Positions 28,566-55,163 of a stretch of 64,000 nucleotides of DNA are shown here, in pieces. How positions within the stretch are numbered: position 1 is the stretch's first letter; each line of letters begins with the position of its first letter. The notes beneath the pieces were generated by a model, which was not told the DNA's origin, did no database searches, and was given only the letters and a program-made list of their open reading frames with translations. The position numbers were made by a program, and so were the translations under genes. Where the stretch lies: positions 672,001 through 736,000 of the forward strand of contig CAWHVC010000003.1 of NCBI GenBank assembly GCA_963832745.1. The letters are read 5' to 3'. The stretch comes from Candidatus Bathyarchaeota archaeon (GTDB lineage Archaea > Thermoproteota > Bathyarchaeia > Bathyarchaeales > Bathycorpusculaceae).

Positions 28566-29939
28566 TTGATTTTGTTAATGACCACTGCGCCGCCTTCTAA
28601 CGCTCCATGGTTTCATGGAAAAAGGCTTCCACCCCTTGGACTAATGTATGTTGCCGCTGCACTCGAAAAAGCAGGCTATGAAGTGCAGATGCTTGATAAT
28701 TACCTAATGCAGCAAAGCACCCAAGAAGTTCAGCAGTTAGCGCTTAAACTTCAACCAGCTATAGTTGGCATAACCTGTGGAAGCGCTACATACAAAAAAT
28801 GCGTAGAAACCGCAAAAGCCATAAAACAAGTGGTGCCCAACTGCAAAATAGTTGTTGGCGGATGGCATGCGTCTTACATGCCTGAAAGTCTACTGGAAAC
28901 CCCTGAGATTGATTACGCGGTTATGGGTGAAGGTGAACGTGCAATTGTGGAGCTTGCCGCTTTCATAATGAAAGGCGACACTATTGGAGCATCTACAGTT
29001 GCCGGAGTAGTCTCCAGAAGCACATCAGGCGTCATAAAGAACGAATGTAAATTCATGAACATGGACGAGTTACCTTTCCCAGCCCGACACCTTTTGCCAC
29101 TTGAAAAGTATGACCGTAACATCGAATTCTTAAAAGCCAAACCAGCCGACATAATGAGCATCAGCCGAGGTTGCACCTTTAGTTGCGGTTTCTGTGAAAC
29201 CAAAAAATTGTGGGGAAACATCAACCGTCAATTCAGCCCCCAACGTGTCATGGCAGAAGTAAACGACCTTGTCGCCAAATACGGTACAAGAGGCATCTAT
29301 TTTATCAACGACAACTTTACCATGCGCAAAAACCAAACCGCTGAACTCTGCGATTTAATGATTAAAAGTAAACTGGACCTTGAATGGGTCTGCGATACCA
29401 GAGTTAACCTTGTAGATCAAGAAATCCTAAACAAAATGGCGTCTGCAGGCTGCAAAACCATATGGTTCGGCGTAGAATCTGGCTCCCAAAAGGTTCTTGA
29501 CCACATTAATAGAGGCATAACGCTTGAGCAAACTGAAGAGGCTTTCAAGATGTGCCGAAAAGCAGGAATCCAAGTAGCCTGCTCCTTCATGTTAGGTATG
29601 CCAAGCGAAACCAAAGAAGACTTAATGGCGTCATACCGTTTTGCAGACAAACTTGACGCTGACTGGTGCCAATTCAACGTCTTCATCGCTTATCCCGACA
29701 GCCCACTTTGGCGTGAAATGCTTGAAACAGGCAAATACACACAGCTGGACGATTTTCTTTACAGTTACAAAACCGACGAATTCGACTACGACGAGTTGAT
29801 GCGAATACAGAAACAGTTCTTCAGAGACTACCACCGAGCGCCAAAACGAATCCTAAAACGTATCCAACGCGAAGGCGTCCTAAACTTTGCCAAACGCCGG
29901 CTCCACCCAACCCCAGTTGACAACGCAGGCATGGCTTAG
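28566..29939 (+). CDS. Cobalamin-binding radical SAM protein (class B-type), paralog 1
   Basis: PPLGLMYVAA, VGGWHAS, GEGE, SRGCTFSCGFC, FGVESG. Confidence 0.9.
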   Translation: MILLMTTAPPSNAPWFHGKRLPPLGLMYVAAALEKAGYEVQMLDNYLMQQSTQEVQQLALKLQPAIVGITCGSATYKKCVETAKAIKQVVPNCKIVVGGWHASYMPESLLETPEIDYAVMGEGERAIVELAAFIMKGDTIGASTVAGVVSRSTSGVIKNECKFMNMDELPFPARHLLPLEKYDRNIEFLKAKPADIMSISRGCTFSCGFCETKKLWGNINRQFSPQRVMAEVNDLVAKYGTRGIYFINDNFTMRKNQTAELCDLMIKSKLDLEWVCDTRVNLVDQEILNKMASAGCKTIWFGVESGSQKVLDHINRGITLEQTEEAFKMCRKAGIQVACSFMLGMPSETKEDLMASYRFADKLDADWCQFNVFIAYPDSPLWREMLETGKYTQLDDFLYSYKTDEFDYDELMRIQKQFFRDYHRAPKRILKRIQREGVLNFAKRRLHPTPVDNAGMA

Positions 29940-29951
29940 GCAGGAAAGACG

Positions 29952-31037
29952 ATGCAGAAGCGAAGGCTTGGACGAACAAACCTTCAAGTATCCATCGTTG
30001 GCTTCGGCGGAACATGGATATCTGAAATAGACAAGCCAACCGCTACAGCCGTTGTCCAAAAAGCGTTTGAGTCTGGCATTAACTTTTTTGACACCGCCCG
30101 CTGGGACGGAGACAGCGAAGAAAAAATCGGGGTTGCCCTAAAAGACGTCCGTGACCAATGCGTTATCGCTACGAAAACGGGTTCTCGCACCAAAAAGGAG
30201 TCGCTTGAAGACTTCAAAAACAGCCTTAAACTTCTTCAAACAGGCCACGTAGACATCATTCAACTTCACGGTATCGACGACGAGAAAACTCTTGATAAGG
30301 CTATGGGTCCTGATGGTGCACTGCAAACCTGCAAAGAAGCACAAAAAGAAGGCTTAGCCACTTTTATCGGCATAACAGGGCACAAACCCAACGTTTTAAC
30401 TAAGGCAATCAAGACAGGCGAATTCGATACGGTGCTTGTTCCACTCAATGTCGTAACTCGTCAGGCTGAAGAGACGCTTTTGCCAGCTGCCAAAGCCCTT
30501 GACGTCGGCGTTGTAGCTATGAAGCCTCTGTCAGCAAAAACCTCTAACCTCATCACCTGCCTGTATCAGCCTTCGCTTTCGCTGGTTTCTGAAGAACCCG
30601 AACTTAAAGTGCTCCTTGGGCAAACCAGCGCCGAAATGGTTTCTAGCCTGCTCAGATACAACTTGTCAAAGAACATTGCTTCCACGATTCCGGGTTTACG
30701 GTCAATTGCCGAAGTTGAAACAGCTGCTAAAGCAGGACAAAACTATCAAGGCTTAACCCTGCAGGAACAAAAACATTTCAGTTTCCAACTTGGCAAGTAC
30801 TGCCGTGACTGCGGTTTGTGCATGCCTTGCCCAGAAAAAGTAAACATCCCTGCTACACTGCGCTTTGAATCATTCTTTTCAGTTTACGGCTTAAAGAATT
30901 GGGCGCGTAAACTTTATGGCGGATTGGAAGTTAAAGCCGACAAATGCACAAACTGTGGTGAATGCCAACAAAAATGTCCCTACAACCTGCCCATAGAAAG
31001 CATGCTTAGAGAAACACATGAAAAGTTAACTGCCTAA
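29952..31037 (+). CDS. Aldo/keto reductase with C-terminal 4Fe-4S dicluster
   Basis: RRLGRT, GINFFDTA, ATKT, QLHG; CRDCGLCMPCP and CTNCGECQQKCP. Confidence 0.9.
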   Translation: MQKRRLGRTNLQVSIVGFGGTWISEIDKPTATAVVQKAFESGINFFDTARWDGDSEEKIGVALKDVRDQCVIATKTGSRTKKESLEDFKNSLKLLQTGHVDIIQLHGIDDEKTLDKAMGPDGALQTCKEAQKEGLATFIGITGHKPNVLTKAIKTGEFDTVLVPLNVVTRQAEETLLPAAKALDVGVVAMKPLSAKTSNLITCLYQPSLSLVSEEPELKVLLGQTSAEMVSSLLRYNLSKNIASTIPGLRSIAEVETAAKAGQNYQGLTLQEQKHFSFQLGKYCRDCGLCMPCPEKVNIPATLRFESFFSVYGLKNWARKLYGGLEVKADKCTNCGECQQKCPYNLPIESMLRETHEKLTA

Positions 31038-31741
31038 TTCTTTTGGAATAGGCAAATGAATGTTGCTGTTGGCGCACCCCATTCTGGCGAGAACGTTTTT
31101 GACTGCAGCAGAGTGAATTTTTTGCCAAGCATATGCTGGAACCGTTCCGTGGTAAACCAGTTCTTGTGCGCATCATAACGCAATCCTTCGATGCCTTCAG
31201 GCGCTTCCAAAATCAACAAGCCCTTAGGTTTCAGAACACGGTAGGCGTCGTCAAGGAACTTTTGAGGATTCCAAAGGTGCTCAACCACTTCTGAAGCTAA
31301 AACCACATCGAAAGTTTCTGGTATGAACGCCAAGTTTTCAGCATCCCCCGAAAAAACACTGGAAACGTGCCGTTTGTGAGCCATTGGTGTGATTGTTGGC
31401 AAATCGAAGCCTGTTACTGTGTTGCCTTGTTTTGCGATGGGTTCGCTTAAGACTCCGTCGCCGCAACCGACATCAAGAACCATCAAGTTTTTTCCGCCCC
31501 TGCTTATCATTTCAAGGAAAACTTGGATTCTTGCCTGATTTAGTGGCCTTGCGTAGGATACGGCTGTGCTGTGTTGGAATGCGGCTGTGTAGGTGTCGTA
31601 TTTTTGCCATTCAATCCAGCCTTCTCTACTGGTGTTTCTGTGGCGGTAAAGCGTTTCACGTATGATAAGATGCTGAATCTGCTTTGGATTCCGGAGAAGC
31701 CACATTATACCGTGAATGTGGTTTTTGATGCCGCTTGACAT
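31034..31741 (-). CDS. Class I SAM-dependent methyltransferase
   Basis: VLDVGCGDG, GDAENL, FDVVLASEVVEHL, RVLKPKG. Confidence 0.88.
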   Translation of the reverse strand: MSSGIKNHIHGIMWLLRNPKQIQHLIIRETLYRHRNTSREGWIEWQKYDTYTAAFQHSTAVSYARPLNQARIQVFLEMISRGGKNLMVLDVGCGDGVLSEPIAKQGNTVTGFDLPTITPMAHKRHVSSVFSGDAENLAFIPETFDVVLASEVVEHLWNPQKFLDDAYRVLKPKGLLILEAPEGIEGLRYDAHKNWFTTERFQHMLGKKFTLLQSKTFSPEWGAPTATFICLFQKN

Positions 31742-32017
31742 TGGCTTCTAAATTGATTAACTCTAATTTAAGGCTTACAGCATCAAAACAAAACTCGAAA
31801 ACCATCTGGAAACAGCAGACAAAAATTCTACACAGCAACCGTTCTTTTTGATTCTTACTGCTTAAGTCGCAAATCGTTGACTAAGTACCCTCTTTACGTG
31901 AAATCCCTGCAGTTTTTGCTCATTCACTGTTTCTCCCAGCAAAAAGCCTTAATCAAAAACCTATATTAATCAAAATAGCCCATCTATCAAACGAAATATA
32001 GAGATAGGGGAAAAAGT

Positions 32018-33403
32018 TTGAAGCCTCACGTAACATTTGTTAATCCACCTTATCCACAAGGAGCACACCAGCATCCACCATTCATTCCACTTGGAATCGG
32101 CTATTTGGCTGCTGTACTTGAGAAAGCTGGCTATCAAGTTGACGTTATTGATTGCCAAGCAATGAAACTAACTTATGACCAGTTCAGAGAAGAACTAGCC
32201 AAACGCAACCCTGACATTGTAGGCATGACCGCAACAACACTAATTTACAAGTCAGGCGCTGAATGTGCAAGAATCGCTAAAGAAGTAAACCCCAAAATCA
32301 TAACCATGATTGGCGGTTCACACGTTTCATTCTGGGATGAAAACGCCCTAAAAGAGTATCCACAACTTGACGTTGTTGTACGTAAAGAGGGCGAAGAAAC
32401 CCTTCTTGAATTAGTGCAAAGAATAGAGGCAGGAAAACCCTACTATGACGTAATAGGTACCACATGCAGAAACGGTGACCAAATCGTCAAAAACCCCGAC
32501 CGCCCCTACATCCAAGACCTCGACTCTCTACCCTTTCCAGCACATCACCTTTTCCCACTTGACTACCTAAACAAGTTCGGCGTAGTCATCTTCCCAGTGT
32601 ACACAAGCCGAGGCTGCACTTTCTGGTGCAACTTCTGCTCAGCAGTGCGCATGTTCGGCAGAGGCTACCGCATGAGAAGCCCCAAAAACGTCGTCGACGA
32701 ACTAGAACATCTAGTAAAAGACTTCGGCGCTGAACAATTCACTTTCTATGACGACGCGTTCTCAGTTGACCAAAACCGTGTCCGCGAAATTTGCCGCCTC
32801 ATCAAAGAAAGAGGCTTAAAGATCAAGTGGGACTGCGAAACCCGTGTTGACATGGTTGACCGTGACTTACTGCAAACCATGAAGGACGCTGGCTGCATTG
32901 CAGTCTGGTTTGGCGTTGAGGCTGGTTCACAAATGGTTATTGACGCTATGGGCAAAGGTTACAAGCTTGAAACGATTAAGAAGTCTTTCAAGTTAGCCCA
33001 AGATGTCGGTTTAATGACTGTTGCAAGCGTCGTACTTGGCTTCCCAGAGGAAACACCTGAAACCCTGCGGGAAACAACCAAATTCATCGAAGAACTCAAC
33101 CCCGACGACGTAGGCTACTACATTGCTACCCCGTATCCCGGCACCCCAATGCATGAACTTGTTGTGAAAAAGGGTTGGCTGAAAATCACGGACTTTAACC
33201 ATTACGACACTGCCCAACCAATCTTTGAAACACCCTACATCAGCTCAAAGCAGCTTAAAGAAATGCGTGAAAAAGCCTTCCAAAGCTTCTACATACGTCC
33301 AAGCTACATTTACAAGATGTGGAGAAAAGGCGGCGTTTACGGAAAATCAGCAACGAGAACAGCACTGGCGCACCTGCGAAGAAAAATTAAGCAATCTGTC
33401 TAA
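32018..33403 (+). CDS. Cobalamin-binding radical SAM protein, paralog 2
   Basis: PLGIGYLAA, GGSHVS, EGE, SRGCTFWCNFC, FGVEAG, TPYPGT. Confidence 0.92.
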   Translation: MKPHVTFVNPPYPQGAHQHPPFIPLGIGYLAAVLEKAGYQVDVIDCQAMKLTYDQFREELAKRNPDIVGMTATTLIYKSGAECARIAKEVNPKIITMIGGSHVSFWDENALKEYPQLDVVVRKEGEETLLELVQRIEAGKPYYDVIGTTCRNGDQIVKNPDRPYIQDLDSLPFPAHHLFPLDYLNKFGVVIFPVYTSRGCTFWCNFCSAVRMFGRGYRMRSPKNVVDELEHLVKDFGAEQFTFYDDAFSVDQNRVREICRLIKERGLKIKWDCETRVDMVDRDLLQTMKDAGCIAVWFGVEAGSQMVIDAMGKGYKLETIKKSFKLAQDVGLMTVASVVLGFPEETPETLRETTKFIEELNPDDVGYYIATPYPGTPMHELVVKKGWLKITDFNHYDTAQPIFETPYISSKQLKEMREKAFQSFYIRPSYIYKMWRKGGVYGKSATRTALAHLRRKIKQSV

Positions 33404-33440
33404 TTTTTCCTTTTTGCGCACTTGATGGTGTAAAACAATA

Positions 33441-34826
33441 ATGGGCACAACTGCAAAAGTAGCATTGGTTAATCCTCCCGCGTTACAAGGCGTTTTTCAT
33501 CATCATCCCTACCTGCCAATGGGACTAGCCTATTTGGCGGCCGTGCTTGAAGAGAAAGGCAACCACGTAATAGTCTTTGACTGCCTAGCAGAAGGCATAA
33601 ACCAAGACCAACTCAAACAGAAACTTGCCGAGTTTAACCCAGATGTGGTTGGTATAAGTTCTATGACTCCAATGGCGCTTTCAACTATGATGGCTGCAAA
33701 AGGTGCAAAAGAAGCCTGCCCAAACGCCACCGTTGTCCTTGGGGGTCCACATGCCACTTTTATGGACAAAGAAATCCTCGCCACTGAACCATCCGTTGAC
33801 GTGATTGTCCGCGGAGAAGGCGAAGTAACCCTTGCAGAATTAACCCAACGAATCGTAAACGGCGTCGGCTTAAACTCTGCTGACGGCATAACCTACCGCC
33901 ATCAAGGGCAAATCGTGCAAAACCCCGACCGCCCTTTCATTCAGAACCTTGACGAGTTGCCGTTTCCAGCTTACAAGCATTTTCCGCTTGAAAAATATCG
34001 TCTGTTTGGCAAACTCTTTTTCCCAGTTATCACCAGTCGAGGCTGCCCATTCCAATGCAACTTCTGCACTACCAGCCGCATTCTTGGCAAACAGTACCGT
34101 GTACGCAGCCCCCAAAACATCGGTCACGAACTTGAATTGCTTAAACGCGAATACGACGCGGACTCTTTCACCTTCTACGATGACACCTTAACTTTAGACA
34201 AGAAGCGCCTCTATGACATCTGCGACGAAATAAAAAGCCGAAAACTCAACATTCCATGGGACTGCCAAACCCGCGTAGACCAAATCAGCGAAGAAATGTT
34301 CGCAAAAATGAAAGCCACCAACTGTCAACAAGTCTTTTTTGGTGCTGAATCAGGCTGCCAAAGTGTGCTTAAAGCTGTTAACAAACGTACCACTGTGGAG
34401 CAGAATGAAGCTGCGATCAAGATGGCTAAGAAGGCTGGCTTGTTTGTTGCAATATCCATTATTATCGGTTATCCTGGTGAAACGGTAGAGATGCGTAAAG
34501 AAACCTTCGATTTTCTGCGGCGCGCTGAACCCGATGACGTGTACCTTTGCATTGCAACGCCTTATCCTGGCACCGAATTGCGCAGGGAAGTTGAACGGCT
34601 TGGCTACAAGATGTCTTCTGACTGGAGCCGTTATGACACAACAACTCCCGTCTTTGAGAACCCCTTGCTGCCAGACGAAGAAGCCCTGCAGCTACGCAAA
34701 CAATTCTACGACAGTTTCTACTCGCCAAAATACGCATTGCGTCACATGTTTAAACGCAACTTTTATAGTCGCGTTATGTCCCGTGTCGCTGTTAACCATT
34801 TGATTTGGCGTATAAAAGGCCATTAA
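33441..34826 (+). CDS. Cobalamin-binding radical SAM protein, paralog 3
   Basis: PMGLAYLAA, GGPHAT, GEGE, SRGCPFQCNFC, FGAESG, TPYPGT. Confidence 0.92.
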   Translation: MGTTAKVALVNPPALQGVFHHHPYLPMGLAYLAAVLEEKGNHVIVFDCLAEGINQDQLKQKLAEFNPDVVGISSMTPMALSTMMAAKGAKEACPNATVVLGGPHATFMDKEILATEPSVDVIVRGEGEVTLAELTQRIVNGVGLNSADGITYRHQGQIVQNPDRPFIQNLDELPFPAYKHFPLEKYRLFGKLFFPVITSRGCPFQCNFCTTSRILGKQYRVRSPQNIGHELELLKREYDADSFTFYDDTLTLDKKRLYDICDEIKSRKLNIPWDCQTRVDQISEEMFAKMKATNCQQVFFGAESGCQSVLKAVNKRTTVEQNEAAIKMAKKAGLFVAISIIIGYPGETVEMRKETFDFLRRAEPDDVYLCIATPYPGTELRREVERLGYKMSSDWSRYDTTTPVFENPLLPDEEALQLRKQFYDSFYSPKYALRHMFKRNFYSRVMSRVAVNHLIWRIKGH

Positions 34827-34927
34827 TCAAGGTCTGCTCTTTCGTAAAAATCCTTTTCATTTTACAGTTTTGGCAAAAGTTTTTCAGACTCAAATAGCCT
34901 ATCTTCGGCTTAAGAGATGCCAGTTAG

Positions 34928-36394
34928 ATGCGTGTTTGCCTCATTAACCCGCCCCGAATTCAACCTAAAGCTTGGGGAAAACCAAGCGTTTACCAACCAA
35001 TGGACCTTGCCTATATTGCAGCTGTACTTGAACAGAAACACGAAATTCTAGTTATTGATGTTCCGAACGAGGGTTGGGAGATGCTGGAAGAGATTGATGG
35101 AGGAAAATATCGACAGGGTCTGCCAAATTCTGAAATTGCCGCTCGAATCAAACGGTTTGAGCCTAAACTGGTGGTTATGGCGATTCCCTATTCAGGTTGG
35201 GCTAGCTCGGCTTTTACGGTTGCCAAAACCGTCAAGGACGTTGACAGAAACATCAAGATTGCACTTACCGGGCTACATCCGTCCTCACGTCCCAACGAAT
35301 GTCTCAAAGAGCCTAACGTGGATTTTGTAGTGATTGGCGAGCAGGAAATGACCACGCTTGAGCTTGCCGACACTTTAGAGAAGAGCGCAATTGCGGATTT
35401 GAAGAACGTTAAGGGCTTGGGCTTTATTGAAAACGGCAAAGTCATAATCACGCCGCCACGACCCGTAATTGAAGATCTTGACTCGATGCCTTTCCCCGCA
35501 CGGCACCTGTTGCCTATGAAAGAGTTCTTTGAAGCAGCCCGAAAAATTCCCATCAGCGGCAACCTCAAAAAACCTTCAATTCGCATGCTAACCACACGAG
35601 GCTGCCCCTATGGCTGCATATTCTGTTCAAACCACATTGTGATGGGACGAAAATGGCGGGCACGGAGCGCCGAAAACGTTGTCGCCGAAATCGAACAAAT
35701 CGTCAAAACCTACCACGTACACCAAATCGACTTCCTCGACGACAACATCGCCTTCAACCGCGAACGCCTCGTTAAAATCTGCAATATGTTGATTGAAAAG
35801 AAGTTGAATATTGAATGGTGTACCCCTAACGGTGTCCGCGCAGACTCTTTAGACCCAGAACTGTTGGCACTAATGCGCAAATCAGGCTGCCAAAAAATCC
35901 TGATAGCACCTGAATCTGGCGTTCAACGCGTTGTTGATGACGTGATTAAGAAGAAGCAGAGCCTAAAACGTGTTGAAGAAGCCGTTAGCGCCGCTCACAA
36001 AGTAGGCATCAAGGTTGGGTGCTTCTTTATTTTGGGTATGATTGGCGAAACTAAAGAGGACATGAAAGAAACCATAGCCTTTGCCCATAAACTGCGCAGT
36101 TTAGGCGCTGAATACTTCTACTTTAGCTATGCCACACCATTGTACGGGACGGAATTATATCGTCTGGCTAAAGAAGGCAACTACCTAACAAGCGACTTCA
36201 GCGATGACGCACTTTCAGCTGTGCAGCCCCTCATCGAAACTCCAGAATTCACCGCCGATGACTTGCGCTGTTTAGCTATGGAAGCGAACCTTGTTAATCC
36301 AACAGTGACTCGTGACCGTGTATTGCGAGCCATTCGCGACCCTAAGAAGGCAATTGAAATTCTAATATTTAGAAGTAAGGCAAACAAAAAGTAA
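34928..36394 (+). CDS. Cobalamin-binding radical SAM protein, paralog 4
   Basis: PMDLAYIAA, TGLHPS, GEQE, TRGCPYGCIFC, APESG, TPLYGT. Confidence 0.9.
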   Translation: MRVCLINPPRIQPKAWGKPSVYQPMDLAYIAAVLEQKHEILVIDVPNEGWEMLEEIDGGKYRQGLPNSEIAARIKRFEPKLVVMAIPYSGWASSAFTVAKTVKDVDRNIKIALTGLHPSSRPNECLKEPNVDFVVIGEQEMTTLELADTLEKSAIADLKNVKGLGFIENGKVIITPPRPVIEDLDSMPFPARHLLPMKEFFEAARKIPISGNLKKPSIRMLTTRGCPYGCIFCSNHIVMGRKWRARSAENVVAEIEQIVKTYHVHQIDFLDDNIAFNRERLVKICNMLIEKKLNIEWCTPNGVRADSLDPELLALMRKSGCQKILIAPESGVQRVVDDVIKKKQSLKRVEEAVSAAHKVGIKVGCFFILGMIGETKEDMKETIAFAHKLRSLGAEYFYFSYATPLYGTELYRLAKEGNYLTSDFSDDALSAVQPLIETPEFTADDLRCLAMEANLVNPTVTRDRVLRAIRDPKKAIEILIFRSKANKK

Positions 36395-36897: not shown

Positions 36898-37557
36898 TTA
36901 TAGTTTGTCTTTGGTTTGAAGGCTTGCCTTTTTGATCAGGTAGTAACCTTTGGTGTTTTTCCATTCCGTCTTGGCTTTCTCGACAGCAATTTTTTGTTTG
37001 TAAATTGGGCAATCAACCACGAGCGTATGGTATTCCCCCCATTCGCCGATTGGATTGATTTTTTTCTCGGCAACCCTCTGCTTGATTTCGTCAAGGATAT
37101 CTTTGTCTATTACTTTGCCAAGCCAATCCTTGTTAGCGCCAAGTGCAGTGTCAACTTCAATGACTAAACATTTGAAGCCGAGCTGCTGCATCTCGTCAAG
37201 CCCAACAATTGGGTCTTTACCAAACAGGGGAGCATACTGTTTGACGCCGATTGGATCCAAAATCCCCTTGTAATAGTCTAAGTGTTCGGGTGTGGTGGTT
37301 ACGCCTGAAACCAAAAGGTCTGCGCCAAGCTTTTTCAGCGCCTTTCCGACATCTTGAGGCTTTTTTCCGACAACCACTGCAGGAATGCCGGTCGCTTCAG
37401 AAATCAATTCAATCATTTTCTTGTTTTCAAGGTGAGCTTTGCCGCCTGTCTGAATAAACATTAAGTGTTTAACGTTTAAGCCTTCTTTAAGCGCCGAATA
37501 CAATGCGTATACGGAGTCTTTTCCGCCTGAAAGTGAAACAACCACGTGGTCTGCCAT
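36898..37557 (-). CDS. dph6: Diphthine--ammonia ligase family (PP-loop ATP pyrophosphatase)
   Basis: SLSGGKDS, APLFG, WLGK, PIGEWGEYHTLVVDCP. Confidence 0.75.
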   Translation of the reverse strand: MADHVVVSLSGGKDSVYALYSALKEGLNVKHLMFIQTGGKAHLENKKMIELISEATGIPAVVVGKKPQDVGKALKKLGADLLVSGVTTTPEHLDYYKGILDPIGVKQYAPLFGKDPIVGLDEMQQLGFKCLVIEVDTALGANKDWLGKVIDKDILDEIKQRVAEKKINPIGEWGEYHTLVVDCPIYKQKIAVEKAKTEWKNTKGYYLIKKASLQTKDKL

Positions 37558-37661
37558 TAAGATGCACCCTAAATTTTGATTGCTGTCTTATTGTTTTTTG
37601 GAAAATAAAAACCTACACCCCACAAGCCTGCTGATAACTGCAGAGCGTGTTTTTGCAGGCT

Positions 37662-37710
37662 TTTTCAACATATTAATGAGCGCTTTTTCAACCAATAGCA
37701 CCTACCCCCC
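37662..37710. repeat. Left half of the 13.6-kb element, ending in core ACCTACCCCC
   Basis: TTTTCAACATATTAATGAGCGCTTTTTCAACCAATAGCACCTACCCCCC aligns with 13605-13651. Confidence 0.85.
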
Positions 37711-37782
37711 TTAGTATTTTTGAAAAAGAGAAGTGTTTACTAAATTTAGTAAACAAACCTTTACGAGTACCCTTTTATCCTA

Positions 37783-38607
37783 ATGATTTCGTTTAAACTA
37801 AGTATGCGCAACACAAGCAAAACACTCGCATTACTACTAACACTAACTATCATATTGTCAGGCTTAACTTTGCTGATGATAAAACCTGCAAACGCTCAAA
37901 CAGTGCCATCTGTGCCTGAATTCACTGCAAAACTTGTTGTCCAATCTTATGACACACCCGCAACAACTCCAACATACACAATAGACCCATATTCAGGCGA
38001 ACAAAAACAAGTTTATCCAGGCTCTCCAAGCTACCATGTTGAAAACAAATGGATAGAACTTACCATTAAAAATCAACCGTTCACCCCATACAATGATTCA
38101 GAAGGCAGACAAGTCAGTTTGTACTATAACATTAGGTACAAGGGATATTTTGGAACTGACTGGTCATACGACCCATTTAACCCCGACGGGGTATCTTCGA
38201 AATCCTACGGCGGAATCGATATGACGTATCTTGTTCCTTATACGCCCTCAAACTCTGAATACACTACAATAACCTACAATTTAGGCACATCAGGTATTCC
38301 AACTTACGGAGAACTAGATTTTCAAGTACAAACACAAATAGGCTACATCCAAACAAGCGAAAACTCCTATATTCAAAGAGTCTTCGGTGCAACCTACCAT
38401 TTCACTGGAGAATCAAGTAGTTGGAGCCCCACACAAACAGTATCAATAACTAAAACATCTGACCCAAGTTCTACCTCAACATTGACACCTGCACCAACCC
38501 CTTCCGTACCAGAATATTCTTGGTTTGCAGTCGTACCCTTGATTCTATCTTTGATACCTGTGGCGTTAATTGTTAGACAACGAAAAACCGTCAACAAAAA
38601 CCCGTAG
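37783..38607 (+). CDS. Secreted surface protein with VPEY (PEF-CTERM-like) motif, TM helix and basic tail; carried as a single-gene cassette
   Basis: Signal peptide ...KPANAQ, PSVPEFT, S/T/P linker, VPEYSW + TM + RQRK. Confidence 0.75.
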   Translation: MISFKLSMRNTSKTLALLLTLTIILSGLTLLMIKPANAQTVPSVPEFTAKLVVQSYDTPATTPTYTIDPYSGEQKQVYPGSPSYHVENKWIELTIKNQPFTPYNDSEGRQVSLYYNIRYKGYFGTDWSYDPFNPDGVSSKSYGGIDMTYLVPYTPSNSEYTTITYNLGTSGIPTYGELDFQVQTQIGYIQTSENSYIQRVFGATYHFTGESSSWSPTQTVSITKTSDPSSTSTLTPAPTPSVPEYSWFAVVPLILSLIPVALIVRQRKTVNKNP

Positions 38608-38617
38608 GTTGACTCTG

Positions 38618-38677
38618 ACCTACCCCCTATAGGTTTCTGCATAGAACCTCTAATAGGCGCCTAATAGGTTGGTAAAA
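38618..38677. repeat. Right half of the 13.6-kb element, beginning with core ACCTACCCCC
   Basis: ACCTACCCCCTATAGGTTTCTGCATAGAACCTCTAATAGGCGCCTAATAGGTTGGTAAAA aligns with 13642-13701. Confidence 0.88.
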
Positions 38678-38709
38678 GATTAAAAAATAAAAATTGGGTT
38701 TAGCTTAAT

Positions 38710-39627
38710 TTAGTACATTGAAACTAAATCGTTTGCGTAAGGCAAGCCTGCCCTTGCGCCCATTGCCGTTACGCTTCTGGCTGCTACAAAATTGCCTATT
38801 CTGCCGCACTCGTAGAGATTTATTTTATTGTCTAAGAGTCCGTAGAGAAAGCCTGCGTTGAAAGCGTCGCCTGCCCCCGTGGTGTCAACTGCTTGAACTG
38901 GAAAAGCATCGACTATGAACTGTTCTTGTCCATCCGTAACATAACAGCCTTTTTCGCCAAGTTTAACAGCTACGATTTTGACGCCCATTTCAAGTATGAA
39001 GTCTGCGCCTTTACGGTAGTCAACCTCGCCTGTTAACTCTTCAAGTTCCAAGGCGTTGGGCATAAACAGGTATGAGCTTCTAATCAGGGGTTCTATTGCA
39101 GTAAGGCCTTTTTGGGCATAGAGGGCGCCGGGGTCGAAGCTGACTTTAATGTTTTTTGGCAACATGCCTGCAAGCTTTTTCTGTGCACGGAACGGTCTAT
39201 CGCCAACAAACGATGAAAGATGCAGAAAACTGGTTTGGGCAATATACTCCAGATTGATTTCTCTTGATTCTAAGGTGTCGTTCACGCCGGGGTTAATGTA
39301 TAAGGCTCTTGCGCCTTTCTTATCGACAAACCCCAGACAGACGCCGCTTTTGCCCTTTTTTGAGTGAATAATGCCGTTAGTATCAACACCTTCACTGCTA
39401 AAACAGTCAATTTGTATTTGCCCTTCATGGTCGTCGGCGATTTTTCCGATAAAACCTGCTTTACATCCAAGCCTAGCTAAACCAACCATGGTGTTTGCTG
39501 CTGAACCACCGCACGCTTCGGTGTAGTTTTCGATGAAACTTTCTTCCTCTGGACCTGCAATGCGTTCAACTTTTAGGAGAGTATCAACGTTTAATGCGCC
39601 AAAACCTATTACGTCAAGTTTATTCAT
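38710..39627 (-). CDS. PfkB-family carbohydrate/nucleoside kinase (EhaT-like)
   Basis: GGSAANT, SFDPG, VKLGEKG, VDTTGAGDAF. Confidence 0.9.
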   Translation of the reverse strand: MNKLDVIGFGALNVDTLLKVERIAGPEEESFIENYTEACGGSAANTMVGLARLGCKAGFIGKIADDHEGQIQIDCFSSEGVDTNGIIHSKKGKSGVCLGFVDKKGARALYINPGVNDTLESREINLEYIAQTSFLHLSSFVGDRPFRAQKKLAGMLPKNIKVSFDPGALYAQKGLTAIEPLIRSSYLFMPNALELEELTGEVDYRKGADFILEMGVKIVAVKLGEKGCYVTDGQEQFIVDAFPVQAVDTTGAGDAFNAGFLYGLLDNKINLYECGRIGNFVAARSVTAMGARAGLPYANDLVSMY

Positions 39628-44567: not shown

Positions 44568-45033
44568 GTTTGGTCCCTCTAAAGCAGTGTAAACGAAATG
44601 TAGTTGAAAAGGGGTTTATCAGCTTTTAGTACAAATTTGGCTAAAACTCATGGGGTTTTTTACATATCCTGCTGGATACTTGTTGGTGTTTGGCGTCGGC
44701 TTGTTTTGTTGTGTGTAAACTGTTGTACGGACAAAGGTTAAAAACGATTTTTCGAAGTATTATGGGTGGTTCGAAGAGTTTCGATTTTTTGCTTCGATAG
44801 TCAGTATATTGATTCGTAAGATATATTTTAAACACTAGAAAGTGAATATTGAATCTTACGACAGAAGGCATTTATAAGAAAAACGTCAAGTTGATTCCAA
44901 AGATGAGTCGGCGATGAACAAGAATATGAAAATAATCAAAATTAAAAATCAAAAACCGAAAAGACTCAAATTTGCGATTACAAACCCAACGGGCTCATCA
45001 CCCAACAATAAACCTAGGAGGTGAATGAAGACA

Positions 45034-45693
45034 ATGAACTACAACGTATTCCACAGATTAATGAAAAACCGCTATGCACTAAGCACAGTCGTCACCACCC
45101 TGATTATCCTCGTCATTTCAGTGCTACTCGCCAGCGTCGTAACTTACTTCGCCATCAACGTCGTAAGCACTCGTGTTCAGGAAGAAAGCTTAGCACTTAA
45201 CAAACAGCACATATGGCTACAACCCCGCAGCAGCACCAGGGACCCAGATTATTCATTAAGCATCACTAATGGTCGTTAACACTGGTGGCAGAGACATCGT
45301 AATTGACAAATTAGCAGTTAGAGGACAGGAAAGCCCCTGGAACGATGTCTGACGAAGATGGAAACGGTAAATTCGTAGTCTACTCGATCACAACAAACCC
45401 AATCTCTGAAGATATGGGATTCGTTGGAACATTCACCACCACTCCAGTAGCCCCTGAAGGTGAGCCAGCAGCTGATGACGACAACGTAGTCGTGTTCGGT
45501 GCATCAAACTATCTAATGCGTGTAACAGATAACGACTTGTCCTTCCATCAGGAACACAATGATCCTCTACATAATCAACCCAGACTCAATCACAATCAAC
45601 GACATTGGCCTAACAGTCAGCATCACACTATACACAGCACAAGCAATGTACTACCGAGAAGCAAACGTCCAAGCATACACAGCATTAGCATAA
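45034..45693 (+). pseudogene. Type IV pilin copy 1 (several indels; may be intact in vivo)
   Basis: KNRYA|LSTVVTTLIILV class III-like signal; NTGGRDIVIDKL and PDSITINDIGLTV...QAMYYREANVQAY recovered in shifted frames; GGAGGTGA SD. Confidence 0.8.
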
Positions 45694-45750
45694 ACATAAA
45701 ATCCCCTCTTCTTTCGTTTTATTTTTTCTTTTAAGTGTCATAGATTTTTC

Positions 45751-45775
45751 TTACACACAAGTTTACTTATTCCAA
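45751..45775 (+). promoter_or_regulatory. Conserved upstream motif TTAC(A/G)CACAA, 58 nt before the pilin 2 start
   Basis: Same motif at 46537, 47297 and 48072. Confidence 0.55.
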
Positions 45776-45808
45776 ATTAACGTTAAGTGCTTTTTAAAGT
45801 GAAAATCT

Positions 45809-46401
45809 ATGAGAAAGTCTACTTAGAAATCGTTTGGCTTTAAGTACAGTTGTTACAACTCTAATTATACTCGTTGTTTCAGTGTTGCTCGCTGGTGTCG
45901 TAACCTACTTTGCTATCAATGTTACTAGTACTCGTGTTCAGGAAGAAAGCTTGCATCTTACCAAGCAACATGTTTGGTACGATGAGAGCCCACAGTGAAT
46001 CTGTTGCAGCTATTATGATCATTAATACTGGTGGTCGTGATGTTGTCATTGATAAATTAACAGTCAGAGGCCAAGAAGTGGCATGGGCAGGAAATCCACA
46101 AAAAGTCTACTACGCAATCACTACTGAATCAATATCAAGCGACCTTATATTCCACACATCAGCTCAACTTGCAGTCGAGGGTGGAATAGATCTAAAGGTT
46201 GACTTAACAGAACTCCAAGCAGTAACAAAACTCGGTGCAGCAGCAAGTGACTTAACTTTGCCATCAGGTCAAACAATGATCATCTACATTACAAGTCCTG
46301 ACAGCATCACAATCAACGACATTGGTCTAACAGTTGCAGTCACAGTTTTCACAAGCCAGGCTATGTACTATAAAGAAACTAACGTTCAAGCATACGTCTA
46401 A
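45809..46401 (+). pseudogene. Type IV pilin copy 2 (two +1 frameshifts)
   Basis: 5' ~160 nt identical to copy 3 except an extra A after ATGAGA; second extra base near 45990; C-terminus PDSITINDIGLTVAVTVFTSQAMYYKETNVQAYV. Confidence 0.85.
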
Positions 46402-46419
46402 TCCATTTAAGTTATCCTT

Positions 46420-46442
46420 CCCCCCCACACTTTCTTTTCTTT
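46420..46442 (+). terminator. CCCCCCCACACTTTCTTTT putative terminator after pilin 2
   Basis: Nearly identical motif after copies 3 and 4; oligo-T tract. Confidence 0.55.
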
Positions 46443-46521
46443 GCACTAAAATTTTTTTGTTTATTTAATTCAAACTAGTTTATTCTTTGATTCTAAAGCT
46501 ACTCTAAAACTTCTGTGCTGC

Positions 46522-46561
46522 TTGTTGTAAATTATTTTACGCACAAATTATCATATCCAAA
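46522..46561 (+). promoter_or_regulatory. Imperfect palindrome TTGTTGTAAA-TTAT-TTTACGCACAA upstream of pilin 3
   Basis: TTACGCACAA 56 nt before the ATG; same arrangement upstream of copy 4. Confidence 0.55.
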
Positions 46562-46592
46562 ACTATCGTACTTGTTTTTAAAGTGAAAATCT

Positions 46593-47186
46593 ATGAGAAG
46601 TCTACTTAGAAATCGTTTGGCTTTAAGTACAGTTGTTACAACTCTAATTATACTCGTTGTTTCAGTGTTGCTCGCTGGTGTCGTAACCTACTTTGCTATC
46701 AATGTTACTAGTACTCGTGTTCAGGAAGAAAGCTTACACCTTACCAAGCAACATGTTTGGTATGATGCGGATGGCGAAATGTCTCAAGCAGCTATTATGA
46801 TCATTAATACTGGCGGTAGAGACGTAGTCATTGACAAGCTTACAGTTCGAGGCCAAGAAATTACTTGGGCAGGTGCCAACCAAAAAGTTTTCTATGCAAT
46901 CACAACTCAATCAATCTCTGAAGATTTACCATTCCTAGTCTACGACCCAACAGCAGACCCAGTAGAAGACATGGCTGACGGTGACCTTACAGGCGTAGGC
47001 GACGGAAACATTGTTATTGCAGCGGCAACAAGCGACATAACTTTACCCTCAGGACAAACATTGATAGCTTATATTCAAAGCCCTGACAGCATTACCATTA
47101 ACGACATTGGCTTAACAGTTGCTATTACAGTGTTTACTAGCCAAGCGATGTACTATAAAGAAACTAACGTACAAGCATACGTCTAA
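46593..47186 (+). CDS. Type IV pilin copy 3 (only intact copy in this assembly)
   Basis: RNRLA|LSTVVTTLIILVVSVLLAGVVTYFA hydrophobic helix, INTGGRDVVIDKLTVRG; pilin-like rather than archaellin-like N-terminus. Confidence 0.88.
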   Translation: MRSLLRNRLALSTVVTTLIILVVSVLLAGVVTYFAINVTSTRVQEESLHLTKQHVWYDADGEMSQAAIMIINTGGRDVVIDKLTVRGQEITWAGANQKVFYAITTQSISEDLPFLVYDPTADPVEDMADGDLTGVGDGNIVIAAATSDITLPSGQTLIAYIQSPDSITINDIGLTVAITVFTSQAMYYKETNVQAYV

Positions 47187-47203
47187 GTCAAATAAACTAA
47201 AAT

Positions 47204-47224
47204 CCCCCCCACACTTTCTTTTTT
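47204..47224 (+). terminator. CCCCCCCACACTTTCTTTTTT putative terminator after pilin 3
   Basis: Repeated motif with oligo-T. Confidence 0.55.
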
Positions 47225-47281
47225 ACATAATTTTAAGTTTGATTATCTTAGTTTGGTTTGATTTTTAATTCAAATCTGTTT

Positions 47282-47322
47282 TTGTTGTAGAATTTTTTAC
47301 GCACAAATCATCTTATTTCAAA
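47282..47322 (+). promoter_or_regulatory. Imperfect palindrome TTGTTGTAGAATTTTTTACGCACAA upstream of pilin 4
   Basis: TTACGCACAA 57 nt before the ATG. Confidence 0.55.
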
Positions 47323-47353
47323 TTATCCTACATTGTTTTCAAGTGAAATTAAA

Positions 47354-47925
47354 ATGAGAAAGTCTACTTAAAAATCGTTTGGCTTTAAGTACAGTTGTAA
47401 CAACTCTAATTATCCTCGTTGTTTCAGTGTTGCTCGCTGGTGTCGTCACCTACTTTGCAATCAACGTCACTAGTACACGTGTCCAGGAAGAAAGCTTGAC
47501 ACCTAACCAAACAACATGTCTGGTATGATGAAAATACCGACACGATGCAGCAATTATGATCATTAATACTGGCGGTAGAGACGTAGTCATTGATAAAGTA
47601 TCAGTCGAGGCCAAGAAGTGGTATGGGCAATGTAACACAAAAGTTTACTATGAAAGCACTTCAGCATCAATCTCCGCAGATCTTGACATGTAGCCAAAGC
47701 AACTTAACGCAAAGGTACCTAAACGCACAATCGGTTAGGTCGCGATACATTGGTGACTAAGTCCTGCAGCAGATGACTTAACACTCCATCAGGCAAACAA
47801 TGATACATCTACATCCAAAGCCCAGACAGCATCACAATCAACGACATCGGCTTAACAGTTGCAATCACAGTCTTCACAGCCAAGCAATGTACTACAAAGA
47901 AACCAACGTTCAAGCAGCTAAATAA
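47354..47925 (+). pseudogene. Type IV pilin copy 4 (many indels)
   Basis: Pilin N-terminus at DNA level with the same extra A after ATGAGA; ends QAMYYKETNVQAAK-stop; no ORF-track call on +. Confidence 0.8.
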
Positions 47926-47942
47926 GGTAATCATAAAAAGAA

Positions 47943-47963
47943 CCCCCCCACACTTTCTTTTTT
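47943..47963 (+). terminator. CCCCCCCACACTTTCTTTTTT putative terminator after pilin 4
   Basis: Repeated motif with oligo-T. Confidence 0.55.
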
Positions 47964-48147
47964 ACTCTAAAAATAATTTATTGCTCGAGCGTTTTTTATC
48001 ATGTTTTTAAATCAAATTGCATTTTTCCGGCTTTTTTGGCATACAGATTCACTACTTGTACAATACTTCTGTTACACACAAACAATCATAATCCAAAATC
48101 CAGACCTAAAGAATCAATCAAACAATGGAAAAGGGATTTGGATAGAA

Positions 48148-48979
48148 ATGAAGCTAAACACGTCATTAAGGAAGTTTTGGCGCTCAACAAAAGCGTTGGC
48201 GATTCCAATGACGTTTCTGATTCTTGCTTGTTTCCATGTTATGCATGATCTCAGTAACTTACTATTTTGCGGTAGAAAAAGTAAACAGCCGTGCTTCAAT
48301 ACTAAAAGTTTCCATAGCCAAAGAAGAAATGCTAACGTTTAGCCAGGACACTGTTCCGATTCTTTGGCAGCCTGGCTCAGCATGCACTTTTGAATTCAGC
48401 GATTCAGGCGGAAAACTCAACGTTCAACCCAACAATAACACCTTGACAGTAAACGTTTCAGGCCAAAGCATTTCCAGTGTCCTTTTTAACGAAACAGTGG
48501 GGCAAGTAACTTACGAGTTGCCTTATTCTGGATCAGCGGAAACAGATGTTTACCTTAAAGGCGACAGCCGATCAATTACTAATCAAAGCGGTTCAGTCTT
48601 AACACAATTGAGCATTGCAAACGGTGAAGACCATCCCGAAATTCAGTTACGGTACCGACCAACCGTATTCATACGTGACTGCTAGGTTTAGAGGACGGTA
48701 AAACAGTCAACAATATCCGAGTCTATATAGTTAACTTGAATGCTTCACAAGAATTTGGTTTGTATGGTAAACTACCCATAAAAGCCTCCTGCCTTAACAC
48801 CCAAATATCCACAACCACATACACCGTCACTTCCGCAGTTCAAGCCCTAACTTTTAGTGCAACATTAAACGGAATTACTGGCCAAGTCAACATCCCCATA
48901 GAAACACACCGCCTCAGGCGCTGTCATCAACATACAACTGGTGCAGTCAAGCATTCAAATCGCGAGGTGCCTACTTTAA
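48148..48979 (+). pseudogene. Minor pilin-like protein (about three indels; probably an intact gene)
   Basis: MKLNTSLRKFWRSTKA|LAIPMTFLIL class III-like leader joins track fragments 48224-48685 and 48736-48993, ending ...IQIARCLL-stop at 48979. Confidence 0.65.
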
Positions 48980-48980
48980 A

Positions 48981-49427
48981 GTGCCCTCTATAGTGCCATC
49001 CTACATTTACGTACTTTTTGCTTCAATCATCGTGGGAACCATAATAATCGGTGTATGCGGCGTTTCAACATTGGAAATAAAAAACAACGCTGACAAACAG
49101 CAATTATCAAACTTAGCCGATTATGTAACAGCACAAAGCAACATGCTTATTCTGCAAGCAACCAGAGACACAGCAAACTCTACAGTTTATCTTAACTTGC
49201 CCTCAACAATTGGAAACCAAAAATATTGGATCCAAATAGAAAACGACACCTCAAAAGCTTGGGTAACCGCAGGTTTTGGTTCAATTCAAACTAGCAGTCA
49301 ACAGCGAACTTACCTTCCTGTAGATGTTTCTGGTTCAGGCGTTTACACGAGTTATTCAGGAATTGCAGTTTTGAAATGTGAAACTGACGGTTCAAAAGTG
49401 ACTTTATCGATTAATGGAGAAAACTAG
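48981..49427 (+). CDS. Pilus accessory / minor pilin-like protein
   Basis: N-terminal TM helix, QQLSNLADYV...LNLPSTIGNQKYWIQI; directly upstream of the assembly ATPase. Confidence 0.6.
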   Translation: MPSIVPSYIYVLFASIIVGTIIIGVCGVSTLEIKNNADKQQLSNLADYVTAQSNMLILQATRDTANSTVYLNLPSTIGNQKYWIQIENDTSKAWVTAGFGSIQTSSQQRTYLPVDVSGSGVYTSYSGIAVLKCETDGSKVTLSINGEN

Positions 49428-49428
49428 A

Positions 49429-51009: not shown

Positions 51010-51014
51010 ACTGC

Positions 51015-52557
51015 ATGACCAAAGCTCCCCCAACCGGCGCATTCGGCAAATTAATTGCAAAACTAAGTAAAGCAACAAGTGAAGAGAAAGAAAACATTGA
51101 ACACGAACTACCCTTCGTGGTAATGATTTTCACTTTGTTAGCTGCCAGCGGAGTATCACCTTACGACAGCTGGAAAAAACTGCGCAAACTATCCTTTTTG
51201 CCTACTTTTAAAAAGGAAGCAGATGAGATAGTTCGGCAGGTTGAGGTTTTAGGGAAAGACCCCCTGACCGTTATGCGTTTGCGTGGGGAATATACAGAAT
51301 CGAAGCTTTATCGCAACTTTTTGGGCGGTTTTGTTTCTTCAGTGCGTAGCGGCGGCAGAATGGTTGATTACTTAAAAAGCGAGTTAAAAACAATTTTTGA
51401 GCTTCGCCATGGAGAAATTACTCGTTCGGTTGAAAAGATAGCTACGCTTGTTGAGGCTTACACTGTCATGTTGATTGTGGTGCTTTGCGTTTACATCCTC
51501 TTTGTGGTGTTTCTCTTCAACAAACACTTTAGACTTGATGGGAGGTATGGCACTTCCCAAATCAGACATCATGACGTATCTTATTGCATTCGTGTTCATG
51601 CCAGTACTTTCAGGCATATTCATCCTCATAGCACATAACATGCAGAAAAGCGCTTTCAGCGACTTAAAAGACCTCTACAAGAAAGCAGTAATCATCCTAG
51701 CCGCTGCTTCAGCTGCACTGCTGGTTTTCGCCTTTATTCCCAACTTAACTGACGCAATCAAGCCAGCTGGTTTGCCTGAAGTAGTCACGATTGGCTTAGT
51801 TGTTGCCTCCGCTATACCTGCAATTCAATACCGAAGAATCGCCACCGTCAACTATAACGCTGAAGACGCCATTCCCTACTTCATACGCGACATCACTGAA
51901 TCGCACAAAATCGGGCTTTCACCAGAAAAAAGCATTATCCAAGCAACCAAACGCAAAAGCTACGGGCACTTCTCTAAGTATCTTGAACTTATGCGTAGCC
52001 AAATCGAATGGGGAGTACCCATCCGCAAAACCTTTGCTAACATTCGCAAAGAAATCCGAAGCTGGTTTGTAACTGTAAACTTTGCAATGATGATTGAAAC
52101 AATCGAAATCGGTGGTAACTCAACCGAATCCTTGGAGATTCTTGCTGAGTATAGCGAAAAAGAACGTGAACAACAAATTAACAAACGTGGCCTGTTAAAG
52201 CCATACATTTTCTTAGCTTTAATCTGGAGTGTACTTATCGCTGTCACTACAGTCATTGTTTCTTTAACTACCACAATGATGACTGGTGTAGTCAGCGATA
52301 GCCTCTCAAGTGTAGCAACATATGCAATGCAAGAAAACCTACGCATCTTCTCTGTTGGCATCATACTGCAATGCTGGATTTCTGGCTTTTTCATTGGAAA
52401 AATCAGTGAAGGAAACTTCGGCGCTGGCTTCCAATACTCTGCAATACTTGCCCTAACCGCTTATGTGTCACTAGTGCTGTCTCAAATGCTGCTCGGTGGA
52501 ATGTTCGGTTTCGTTCCCTCAGGCGCCCTTAACCCTTCTGGAGGAGGCATAACATAA
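51015..52557 (+). CDS. Pilus platform membrane protein (TadC/PilC/ArlJ-like, two T2SSF domains), one apparent +1 frameshift near 51512
   Basis: Track fragments 51015-51638 and 51475-52557 join at TTTGTGGTGTTTCTCTTCA; ELPFVV...ASG, IPYFIRDI...GLS, GFFIGKISEG. Confidence 0.85.
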
Positions 52558-52560
52558 AAA

Positions 52561-54020: not shown

Positions 54021-54022
54021 AT

Positions 54023-55064: not shown

Positions 55065-55163
55065 AGCAGTGTTGTCTCTCCAGTTTTTTACACAACGATA
55101 AATATCCAACCAACCAACTGATTAGTAATCTAAAGCCAACCAAAACTGCAGAAGAGACCAAAA

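Follow-up and report, generated by a model that had tools for sequence, protein, structure and literature searches.

Short intergenic repeats are a familiar component of bacterial genomes. BOX elements of Streptococcus pneumoniae consist of boxA, a variable number of boxB copies and boxC, and the bacterial interspersed mosaic elements (BIME) and repetitive extragenic palindromic (REP) sequences of enterobacteria are mosaics too. Such families are short, non-coding and intergenic, reach roughly a hundred or more copies per genome and encode no enzyme. Other repeats are the sites of specific recombinases, as in elements integrated between attL and attR by tyrosine recombinases or the Xer-dependent dif modules of Acinetobacter plasmids. 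Here we describe a locus that resembles systems of both kinds, in a 64,000-nucleotide stretch of the genome of a Candidatus Bathyarchaeota archaeon (assembly GCA_963832745.1, contig CAWHVC010000003.1, positions 672,001 to 736,000 of the forward strand; hereafter the window). An intergenic element of about 95 bp is intact near 13.6 kb and is split at 37.7-38.7 kb, where its two halves, each with a 10-base core, flank a single gene. The sequence-only reading of this arrangement was an integron-like cassette system shuffling surface-protein genes, and integrons have been reported from archaea (10.1101/2022.02.06.479319). We estimate at roughly 55% the probability of a different reading, namely that the element belongs to a mosaic family of intergenic repeats, abundant and widespread in Bathyarchaeia, whose copies recombine with one another at the core. 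The split locus is then best read as a two-core copy with a complete gene unit in its inter-core space, its duplicated core belonging to the repeat family and not having been made by insertion of the gene.

The window contains three exact copies of the core, ACCTACCCCC, at 13642, 37700 and 38618. When one mismatch is allowed, the matches number five against 1.29 expected, and none of 100 shuffles reached five. A full-length profile built from 73 intact copies of the family places the complete one-core copy at 13596-13703 on the plus strand (E 8.7e-25), with a left module (L), the core at 13642-13651 and a right module (R). This copy contains the ACCTA-N7-TAGGT motif and the 12-bp palindrome TTAACATGTTAA (13607-13618) ascribed to it before, and it lies between two divergent genes, a cobZ-like gene (13022-13501, minus strand) and a hypothetical gene (13786-14202, plus strand). 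At the split locus, L and core 1 (37700-37709) occupy 37653-37709 of the plus strand (L profile 37655-37709, E 3.7e-10; family profile 37653-37715, E 1.6e-8), and 25 of the 26 bases at 37684-37709 are identical to 13626-13651 of the intact copy. This half is situated in the divergent promoter region between dph6 (36898-37557, minus strand) and the enclosed gene. Core 2 (38618-38627) and R follow at 38618-38679, also on the plus strand (R profile E 6.8e-20; family profile 38615-38679, E 6.8e-21), with 51 of 56 bases identical between 38618-38673 and 13642-13697 (E 1.7e-15), and R ends about 30 nt short of the stop codon of the convergent pfkB (38710-39627, minus strand). At the level of families the names CobZ, Dph6 and PfkB are correct, though the scores of CobZ and Dph6 fall below curated cut-offs. 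The core-to-core distance is 918 bp (38618 minus 37700). The element coordinates, the split halves, their spacing and the single plausible open reading frame (ORF) between them were thus as originally claimed. Apart from the intact copy and these two halves, the family profiles found nothing significant in the whole 64 kb. A third, degenerate core-like motif, ACCTACACCC (37611-37620, plus strand, one mismatch), stands about 35 nt upstream of L. A core-like motif upstream of L is also present in other copies, such as those at loci L010, L062 and L064 of the sample described below.

The locus also contains the inverted repeat GTAGGT-N8-ACCTAC (38604-38623, plus strand) within which the stop codon of the gene had been placed, and this was confirmed. 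The TAG at 38605-38607 lies inside GTAGGT (38604-38609), and the repeat extends across the stop codon, the 10-nt linker GTTGACTCTG and the first six bases of core 2, ACCTAC (38618-38623). The inverted repeat is present in the centroid DNA fold of the region, whose z score is only -1.54, and no upstream GTAGGT arm was seen in other R-unit copies.

Family membership was established by one search of genome contigs with an exact 18-mer consisting of the core and the next eight bases. Matches came as 8-kb blocks, so that multi-gene cargo longer than a block would be missed, and all counts of forms below refer to the loci listed from this search plus the window and are biased toward copies with a perfect core and R. 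At least 115 loci in at least 19 assemblies were found, all of them metagenome-assembled genomes (MAGs) of Bathyarchaeia or Thermoproteota, which bears out the earlier claim of a dispersed, multi-copy element. Assembly ADS1 contributed 28 of the listed loci and the complete 3.04-Mb genome CP170178 another 18; none came from the window's own genome, the best flank identity being 76%. Profiles for L (left module plus core) and R (core plus right module) gave 120 L and 163 R matches in the 115 listed loci and the window. Copies lay outside ORFs of at least 90 aa in 115 of 119 cases, in tandem (47), convergent (31) or divergent (20) settings. The upstream neighbour was on the same strand as the copy in 64 cases and on the opposite strand in 41, with 55 and 53, respectively, for the downstream neighbour. 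By eye and without a count, the strands of the 18 sampled CP170178 copies look mixed. The genes beside the copies are ordinary ones, such as those for ribosomal protein L1, AIR synthase, homocitrate synthase and aspartokinase. The repeat family is therefore intergenic, dispersed and nearly random in its orientation to genes.

Among the 136 core-containing R copies, 76 abut L and thus have the one-core form, while in others L with its core is separated from the core of R by 4-30 nt (3 copies), 31-55 nt (11), 56-80 nt (21), 81-1500 nt (6) or more than 1500 nt (3); the remaining 16 have no L in the locus. A two-core layout with a 4-80 nt non-coding spacer is accordingly present in 35 of 136 copies, and gaps of 4-1500 nt in 41, each side carrying a core. 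The 10-base core had been proposed as the point at which the element comes apart, and as a recurrent point of separation it is supported. The spacers of listed two-core copies are 22-73 nt long and fall into recurring size and sequence classes of about 40 nt and about 63-73 nt, the latter with a third degenerate core; these classes are modules of the family in their own right, and both open with one and the same junction. In 28 of the 30 exact cores that are not followed by TATAGG, a TTAG/TAAG-type junction comes next. The window's left half has such a junction in the 19-nt module CTTAGTATTTTTGAAAAAG (37710-37728, plus strand), and blastn matches to gene-less copies continue through it beyond the core: 37662-37728 is 86.8% identical to L054 over 68 nt, and 37661-37721 matches L083. 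Since it aligns with copies that hold no gene, 37710-37728 is family sequence and not specific to the cargo, and the duplication of the core is therefore no mark of gene insertion. The hybrid att junction proposed for this site is not supported, on the same observation.

The repeat has no coding capacity and combines a few modules, whose number and order vary from copy to copy. R carries two to four tandem boxes of about 11 nt at intervals of roughly one turn of the helix, an imperfect palindrome is present in L, and the C-rich 10-base core forms the first part of a 5-bp hairpin. Tandem R-R' and L-R-L-R arrays exist among the listed copies. Two-core forms are concentrated in five assemblies. 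A further non-coding module of 70-150 nt, X, lies 3' of R in 14 loci, mostly in copies of the longer spacer class (the 72-class); loci named for it are L052 (2801-3130), L027, L054, L007, L056, L079, L001, L021, L081, L095, L105, L091, L002, L102 and L019. Together, 72-class copies and X make units of 250-330 nt, which are repeated within CP170178 at 70-85% identity and are also found in related assemblies. In L029 (4650-4712), L039, L068, L073, L078 and L087, a conserved module P takes the place of L. It contains a strong TATA-like box of archaeal type (such as CCCCCTTATTTAAAGG), situated some 40 nt 5' of the core, and the downstream gene is on the same strand in about half of these copies. 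By its position, P would set transcription start just before the core and may drive a non-coding transcript of R. Two other roles were considered for the element and rejected. As coding sequence, one copy is open throughout, but the intact copy of the window has an in-frame stop; as a general 5' leader, R fails in that just 2 of 55 downstream same-strand ORFs begin inside it.

A dedicated enzyme acting in trans could in principle recognize the core and move circular cassettes between L-core-R docking sites, the short spacers being remnants without cargo. Several features agree with this: direct 10-bp cores flank every inter-core segment, the spacers have conserved ends (a TTAG/TAAG-type start and a T-run or GGAAAG-type end), and the core sits in a small ACCTA-N7-TAGGT hairpin with the shape of a recombinase core site. 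The contents of the gaps are against it. Inter-core segments in 35 of the 41 split copies are only 4-80 nt long and non-coding, too short for circles, and they come in few size classes that are amplified with L, R and X as whole units. Gene-sized gaps of 81-1500 nt number six, in the window (918), L094 (859), L109 (646), L007 (367), L053 (282) and L095 (124), and only the window copy, one of 136, has an ORF between L-core and core-R. No ORF of at least 100 aa is present in the gaps of L007, L053 and L095. In L094 a 194-aa opposite-strand ORF lies between a complete element and an R-only copy, and in L109 the gene for a 165-aa membrane protein has a complete one-core element on one side and an R-only copy on the other. 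The stop codon of this L109 gene is exactly 10 nt before the core, as in the window, which again is what cassettes would lead one to expect. The claim of gene-cassette cargo is nevertheless not supported by these counts.

The search for an enzyme and for a recombination-site fold was equally unproductive. No recombinase or transposase Pfam family was matched at E <= 1e-5 among the 66 ORFs of the window, in agreement with the earlier statement that none is present there. None was seen among 28 ORFs beside or inside split or R-only copies (homologs of the cargo included) or among 14 representatives of the multi-copy ORF clusters formed by 785 locus ORFs, and this holds for tyrosine, serine and HUH enzymes and for an integron integrase beside the insertion site. 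A transposase as a multi-copy ORF was ruled against, the largest clusters being ABC transporters, NosD-like proteins, P-type ATPases, radical SAM enzymes and similar proteins. Co-oriented cassette arrays were not found among the sampled loci, where copies are single and dispersed. RNAalifold on the 73 intact copies recovered just the five-pair invariant hairpin (-2.9 kcal/mol) with no covarying pairs, and single-strand DNA folds of three window pieces were unremarkable (z from -0.48 to -1.54), so that the site lacks the attC-like fold and covariation of an integron. The "terminal complementarity" once noted for the intact copy does not exceed chance either (fold z = -0.48). A structured RNA was rejected on the lack of covariation, together with the window's lack of any tRNA and of any Rfam match at gathering score (at E <= 1 there were solely chance-level ones). 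Neither the phage collection (intact element and filled locus) nor the plasmid collection (filled locus) gave a blastn match, these collections holding few or no Bathyarchaeia records. We therefore regard it as quite unlikely that the core is the recognition site of an undiscovered trans-acting enzyme that swaps inter-core content among hundreds of L-core-R sites. If it were, Bathyarchaeia would possess a chromosome-wide, array-free form of cassette exchange, with the window gene a rare gene-sized cassette and the spacers of 30-70 nt minimal ones.

L and R might instead be the two ends of a non-autonomous transposon resembling a miniature inverted-repeat transposable element (MITE) or REP, in which case the 1.03-kb L...R unit would move whole with its passenger gene, by means of a transposase encoded elsewhere in the genome. 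The family is indeed multi-copy, intergenic, nearly random in orientation and present or absent at syntenic sites between relatives, its lineage-specific sub-families of about 100 to 330 nt are repeated within one genome, and a weak terminal inverted repeat (TTTTCAAC left, GTTGGTGAAAA right) is seen in the window copy and in a small number of further copies (L026, L028). That inverted repeat is, however, absent from most copies, whose ends are fuzzy and differ. A target-site duplication was not detected in 73 copies, the longest word shared by a copy's own flanks averaging 4.47 against 4.43 +/- 0.12 for shuffled partners, although with such ends very short duplications could be missed. No transposase, Y1 or TnpB family appeared in the window ORFs or in 42 locus ORFs scanned, a second gene-bearing unit was not encountered, and the cargo homologs of five loci stand in other contexts. 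Compared with REP/RAYT or IS200/IS605-derived elements, whose stable imperfect palindrome is recognized by a Y1 HUH enzyme, the repeat offers a stem of just 5 bp. A transposon with two ends would not account for the R-only, tandem R and P-R forms. We consider this explanation unlikely.

Comparison of syntenic loci gives a view of how copies change in place. Both flanks are syntenic, at 84-87% identity, between L018 and L064, which have L-core and the last R in common, with unrelated segments between the cores. Replacement of inter-core content between fixed cores, which a cassette system would also produce, is thus seen at one two-sided site. L053, L109 and L022 have in common core-R and a right flank of about 300 nt that includes a small zinc-ribbon ORF, and differ in what precedes: 272 nt of inter-core sequence in L053, an R plus a gene in L109, and 53 nt in L022. 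Among the matches listed, none joins the left flanks of L053 and L109. The left flanks of L053 and L069 are 91% identical as far as the junction, past which the two loci differ and L069 reaches its contig end. One-sided comparisons show further mixed states; for example, the one-core form in L010, L062 and L106 stands against a 40-class copy in L083. The element sites of L037 and L107 project onto window positions without an element, and the partner copy is missing in eight further compared pairs, while elsewhere copies have been retained at syntenic sites between species with flank identities of 70-87%.

Two side observations belong to these loci. The zinc-ribbon ORF (start MVPCPRCGK...), at 1486-1611 in L109 and 6222-6428 in L053, both on the minus strand, ends at the outer edge of R, and L022 shows conservation of this region as well. 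The frame of the L053 ORF continues into the element, which suggests, from the reading frame, a frameshift or a changed stop codon. Several contigs start or end in or beside an element (L069 1-164, L093, L106 1-98 and L026 1-127), suggesting that the repeat family breaks short-read assemblies of these MAGs.

Persistence at syntenic sites could also mean that the modules are selected cis-acting DNA, such as arrays of sites for a conserved DNA-binding or chromatin protein, or promoter- or terminator-like punctuation around a gene, and not traces of mobility. Conservation is consistent with such a role. In 42 L matches, where the core lies outside the searched 18-mer, most core columns are conserved at 0.9-1.0 and the flank columns mostly at 0.3-0.8; the core and first R bases are near-invariant in 19 species, whereas the remainder of the element has drifted. 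The palindrome of L, the helically spaced boxes of R and the TATA-like module upstream of the core in the six P-module loci would suit protein binding or transcription signals, and elements often begin right at stop codons. Orientation, on the other hand, is random, and convergent, divergent and tandem settings are used alike. Presence or absence between relatives and the amplification of whole sub-families are traits of mobile or repeated DNA, and the two-core forms are not explained by selection on cis-acting sites alone. We hold a purely cis-acting role to be improbable.

The enclosed gene (37783-38607, plus strand; 274 aa, or 267 aa from the ATG at 37804) is the sole plausible ORF between the cores, where an antisense ORF of 82 aa (38394-38642) is additionally listed. 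Its product was described as a secreted surface protein. The sequence indeed shows a signal-peptide-like N-terminus, a Thr/Ser/Pro-rich linker and, at the C-terminus, a hydrophobic stretch with RQRK after it; no Pfam or NCBIfam family matched to lend further support. ESM Atlas neighbours are Bathyarchaeota hypothetical clusters with scores of 0.97, and the gene is a member of a hypothetical family restricted to Bathyarchaeota. Foreign origin is unsupported: GC content (40.5%, z -1.2) and GC at third codon positions (z -1.6) are ordinary for the window, and the segment between the identical 10-bp cores is one gene of chromosomal type. The gene has its own putative control region at 37735-37781 (plus strand), read directly from the sequence. 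A perfect 20-bp palindrome, GTTTACTAAATTTAGTAAAC (37735-37754), stands upstream of a promoter-like block. The last part of this block is a T-rich, TATA-like box (37770-37780), which precedes the ATG at 37804 by about 25-30 nt. The block, AGTAAA...TTTACGA...CCTTTTATC, is also found upstream of the homologs in L026 and L052 (conserved at about 70-213 and about 2040-2154, respectively), is looser in L081 and was not recognizable upstream of the L070 homolog. Judged by motif content, palindrome and block look like an operator plus promoter common to this secreted-protein family. The gene is a self-contained unit of palindrome, promoter block and ORF.

Homologs of the gene comprise six ORFs in five of the 115 listed loci (L056, L070, L026, L052 and L081, with L052 and L056 being paralogous duplicates), and none of them is bracketed by L-core and core-R, an observation that runs counter to the cassette explanation and does not support the proposed shuffling of surface-protein genes. 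The L026 homolog is 97 nt downstream of an intact one-core element with no R after it, and the L052/L056 homolog is convergent with a 72-class element. Every locus was pre-selected for the element, and L052 and L056 are duplicates, and no conclusion is drawn about an association between the cargo family and the element.

The gene might also simply be a resident flanked by chance by two unrelated partial copies, one of L type and one R-only. Partial copies do occur: R-only copies make up 16 of 136 and follow stop codons directly in L109 and L057, and one of the 120 L matches, in L052, is L-only. The halves thus also occur alone, and the breakpoint between them is recurrent at the core. Only two L and two R matches are found in all 64 kb of the window, a density at which a same-strand pair within 1 kb is unlikely, and 119 of the 120 L matches have a same-strand R downstream within 1500 nt (an ascertainment-biased count). 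Chance flanking is a very remote explanation.

Taken together, these results support the integron-like reading in part, and they do not support a dedicated gene-cassette system. For the mosaic repeat family we propose the following course of events. Copies would recombine with one another by homologous exchange, gene conversion or slippage, and the exchange would resolve at the core because it is the most invariant block common to all copies. Such exchange could interconvert one-core and two-core forms and replace the segment between two cores, interrupt synteny where an element lies and, now and again, enclose a gene by direct repeats. Once bracketed in this way, a gene could in principle loop out and re-insert at another copy without a dedicated enzyme, although nothing indicates that this has occurred here. 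Membership in the family, the forms with their counts, the common junction module, the gene's promoter block and the lack of attC-like, target-site-duplication and RNA signatures are direct results. The action of general recombination at the core, in place of a dedicated enzyme, is an inference, and so are the manner in which the family spreads and the route by which this gene came between the cores.

Several points weigh against this account. The synteny comparisons are mostly one-sided, and sampling with an exact 18-mer biases the counts of forms. Spacers of 31-55 and 56-80 nt are not simple tandem duplicates of L, and conserved spacer ends with direct 10-bp cores are what targeted insertion or site-specific recombination would leave. 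Core-R follows within 452 nt at 24 of the 25 listed TTAG/TAAG junctions (at 918 nt in the window). Since the junction after L-core is almost always followed by core-R, the two halves behave as one unit. The tidy entry of a gene unit into a spacer of about 30 nt is a further difficulty: the gene unit is bordered on the left by the 19-nt junction module plus 6 bases and on the right by 10 nt, and it retains its natural stop codon. Finally, 10 to 25 bases of identity are short for homologous recombination, although archaeal recombination on such short homology is possible. A dedicated recombinase, unlikely as it is, has the conserved spacer ends and the tidy fit of the gene unit as its best arguments.

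Away from the repeat, some other loci of the window are worth recording. A glycosyltransferase gene next to the cobZ-like gene has a longest ORF at 11740-13077 (TTG start) with a 56-nt same-strand overlap with cobZ-like 13022-13501; its true start is probably further downstream, because residue 77 is the first of the glycosyltransferase domains. Four paralogous B12-binding radical SAM genes stand in one orientation at 28566-36394 (28566-29939, 32018-33403, 33441-34826 and 34928-36394), accompanied by an aldo/keto reductase-ferredoxin fusion and a methyltransferase. Small family-less ORFs at 45025-56489 surround a type IV secretion/pilus ATPase (49414-51009) and a platform protein (51475-52557); together with the chemotaxis set at 61111-63543 (a response regulator, CheD and two CheC-like genes), they probably form an archaellum or pilus locus.

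Bathyarchaeia rank with the most abundant sediment archaea, and their mobile and repeated DNA is almost undescribed. Literature searches on Bathyarchaeia MITEs and with the core motif as text found no published description of the repeat family, and the article on the complete Bathy-6 genome that supplied at least 18 of the sampled loci (PMC11697101) does not contain the terms repeat, transpos-, integron, intergenic or mobile. Since the core is invariant across at least 19 species and synteny breaks at the elements, the family is a candidate driver of both genome rearrangement and MAG assembly breaks. It also offers a possible handle for finding a protein that recognizes the core. For annotation, the locus is a caution that direct repeats around single genes are easily mistaken for att sites.

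The family can be set beside the known systems as follows. With integrons, including those reported from archaea (10.1101/2022.02.06.479319), the locus has in common a single promoter-proximal ORF between repeats, a stop codon near the downstream repeat and a repeat length of about 60-100 nt, which is in the attC range. It differs in that no integrase was seen in the scanned ORFs, no attI array is present and the repeat does not fold as an imperfect palindrome; the split is in mid-repeat, the gene has its own putative promoter, and 35 of the 41 "filled" copies are gene-less. With attL/attR elements and dif modules it has in common an identical short core around a discrete segment and the possibility that an enzyme acts in trans. 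Here, in contrast, the inter-core segments are mostly 20-70 nt, the arms are only 5 bp, the cores are direct repeats within a larger family without a unique chromosomal site, and the scanned ORFs include no recombinase. MITEs (PMC10969869) are likewise small, non-autonomous, multi-copy and mostly intergenic, with lineage-specific sub-families and variable presence or absence. Unlike them, the Bathyarchaeia family has no detected target-site duplication, weak or absent terminal inverted repeats and no cognate transposase in the scanned ORFs, and half-elements and tandem arrays are common in it. From BOX and BIME the family is set apart by being archaeal, by its occurrence in at least 19 species, by module sequences unrelated to either and by an invariant 10-base core at which modules are joined, for which no BOX or BIME counterpart is stated; the long palindromes typical of REP are also missing. 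In its organization, however, it is like them, encoding no enzyme and having few modules in variable number and order, with fixed end modules and variable internal ones, placed beside ordinary genes.

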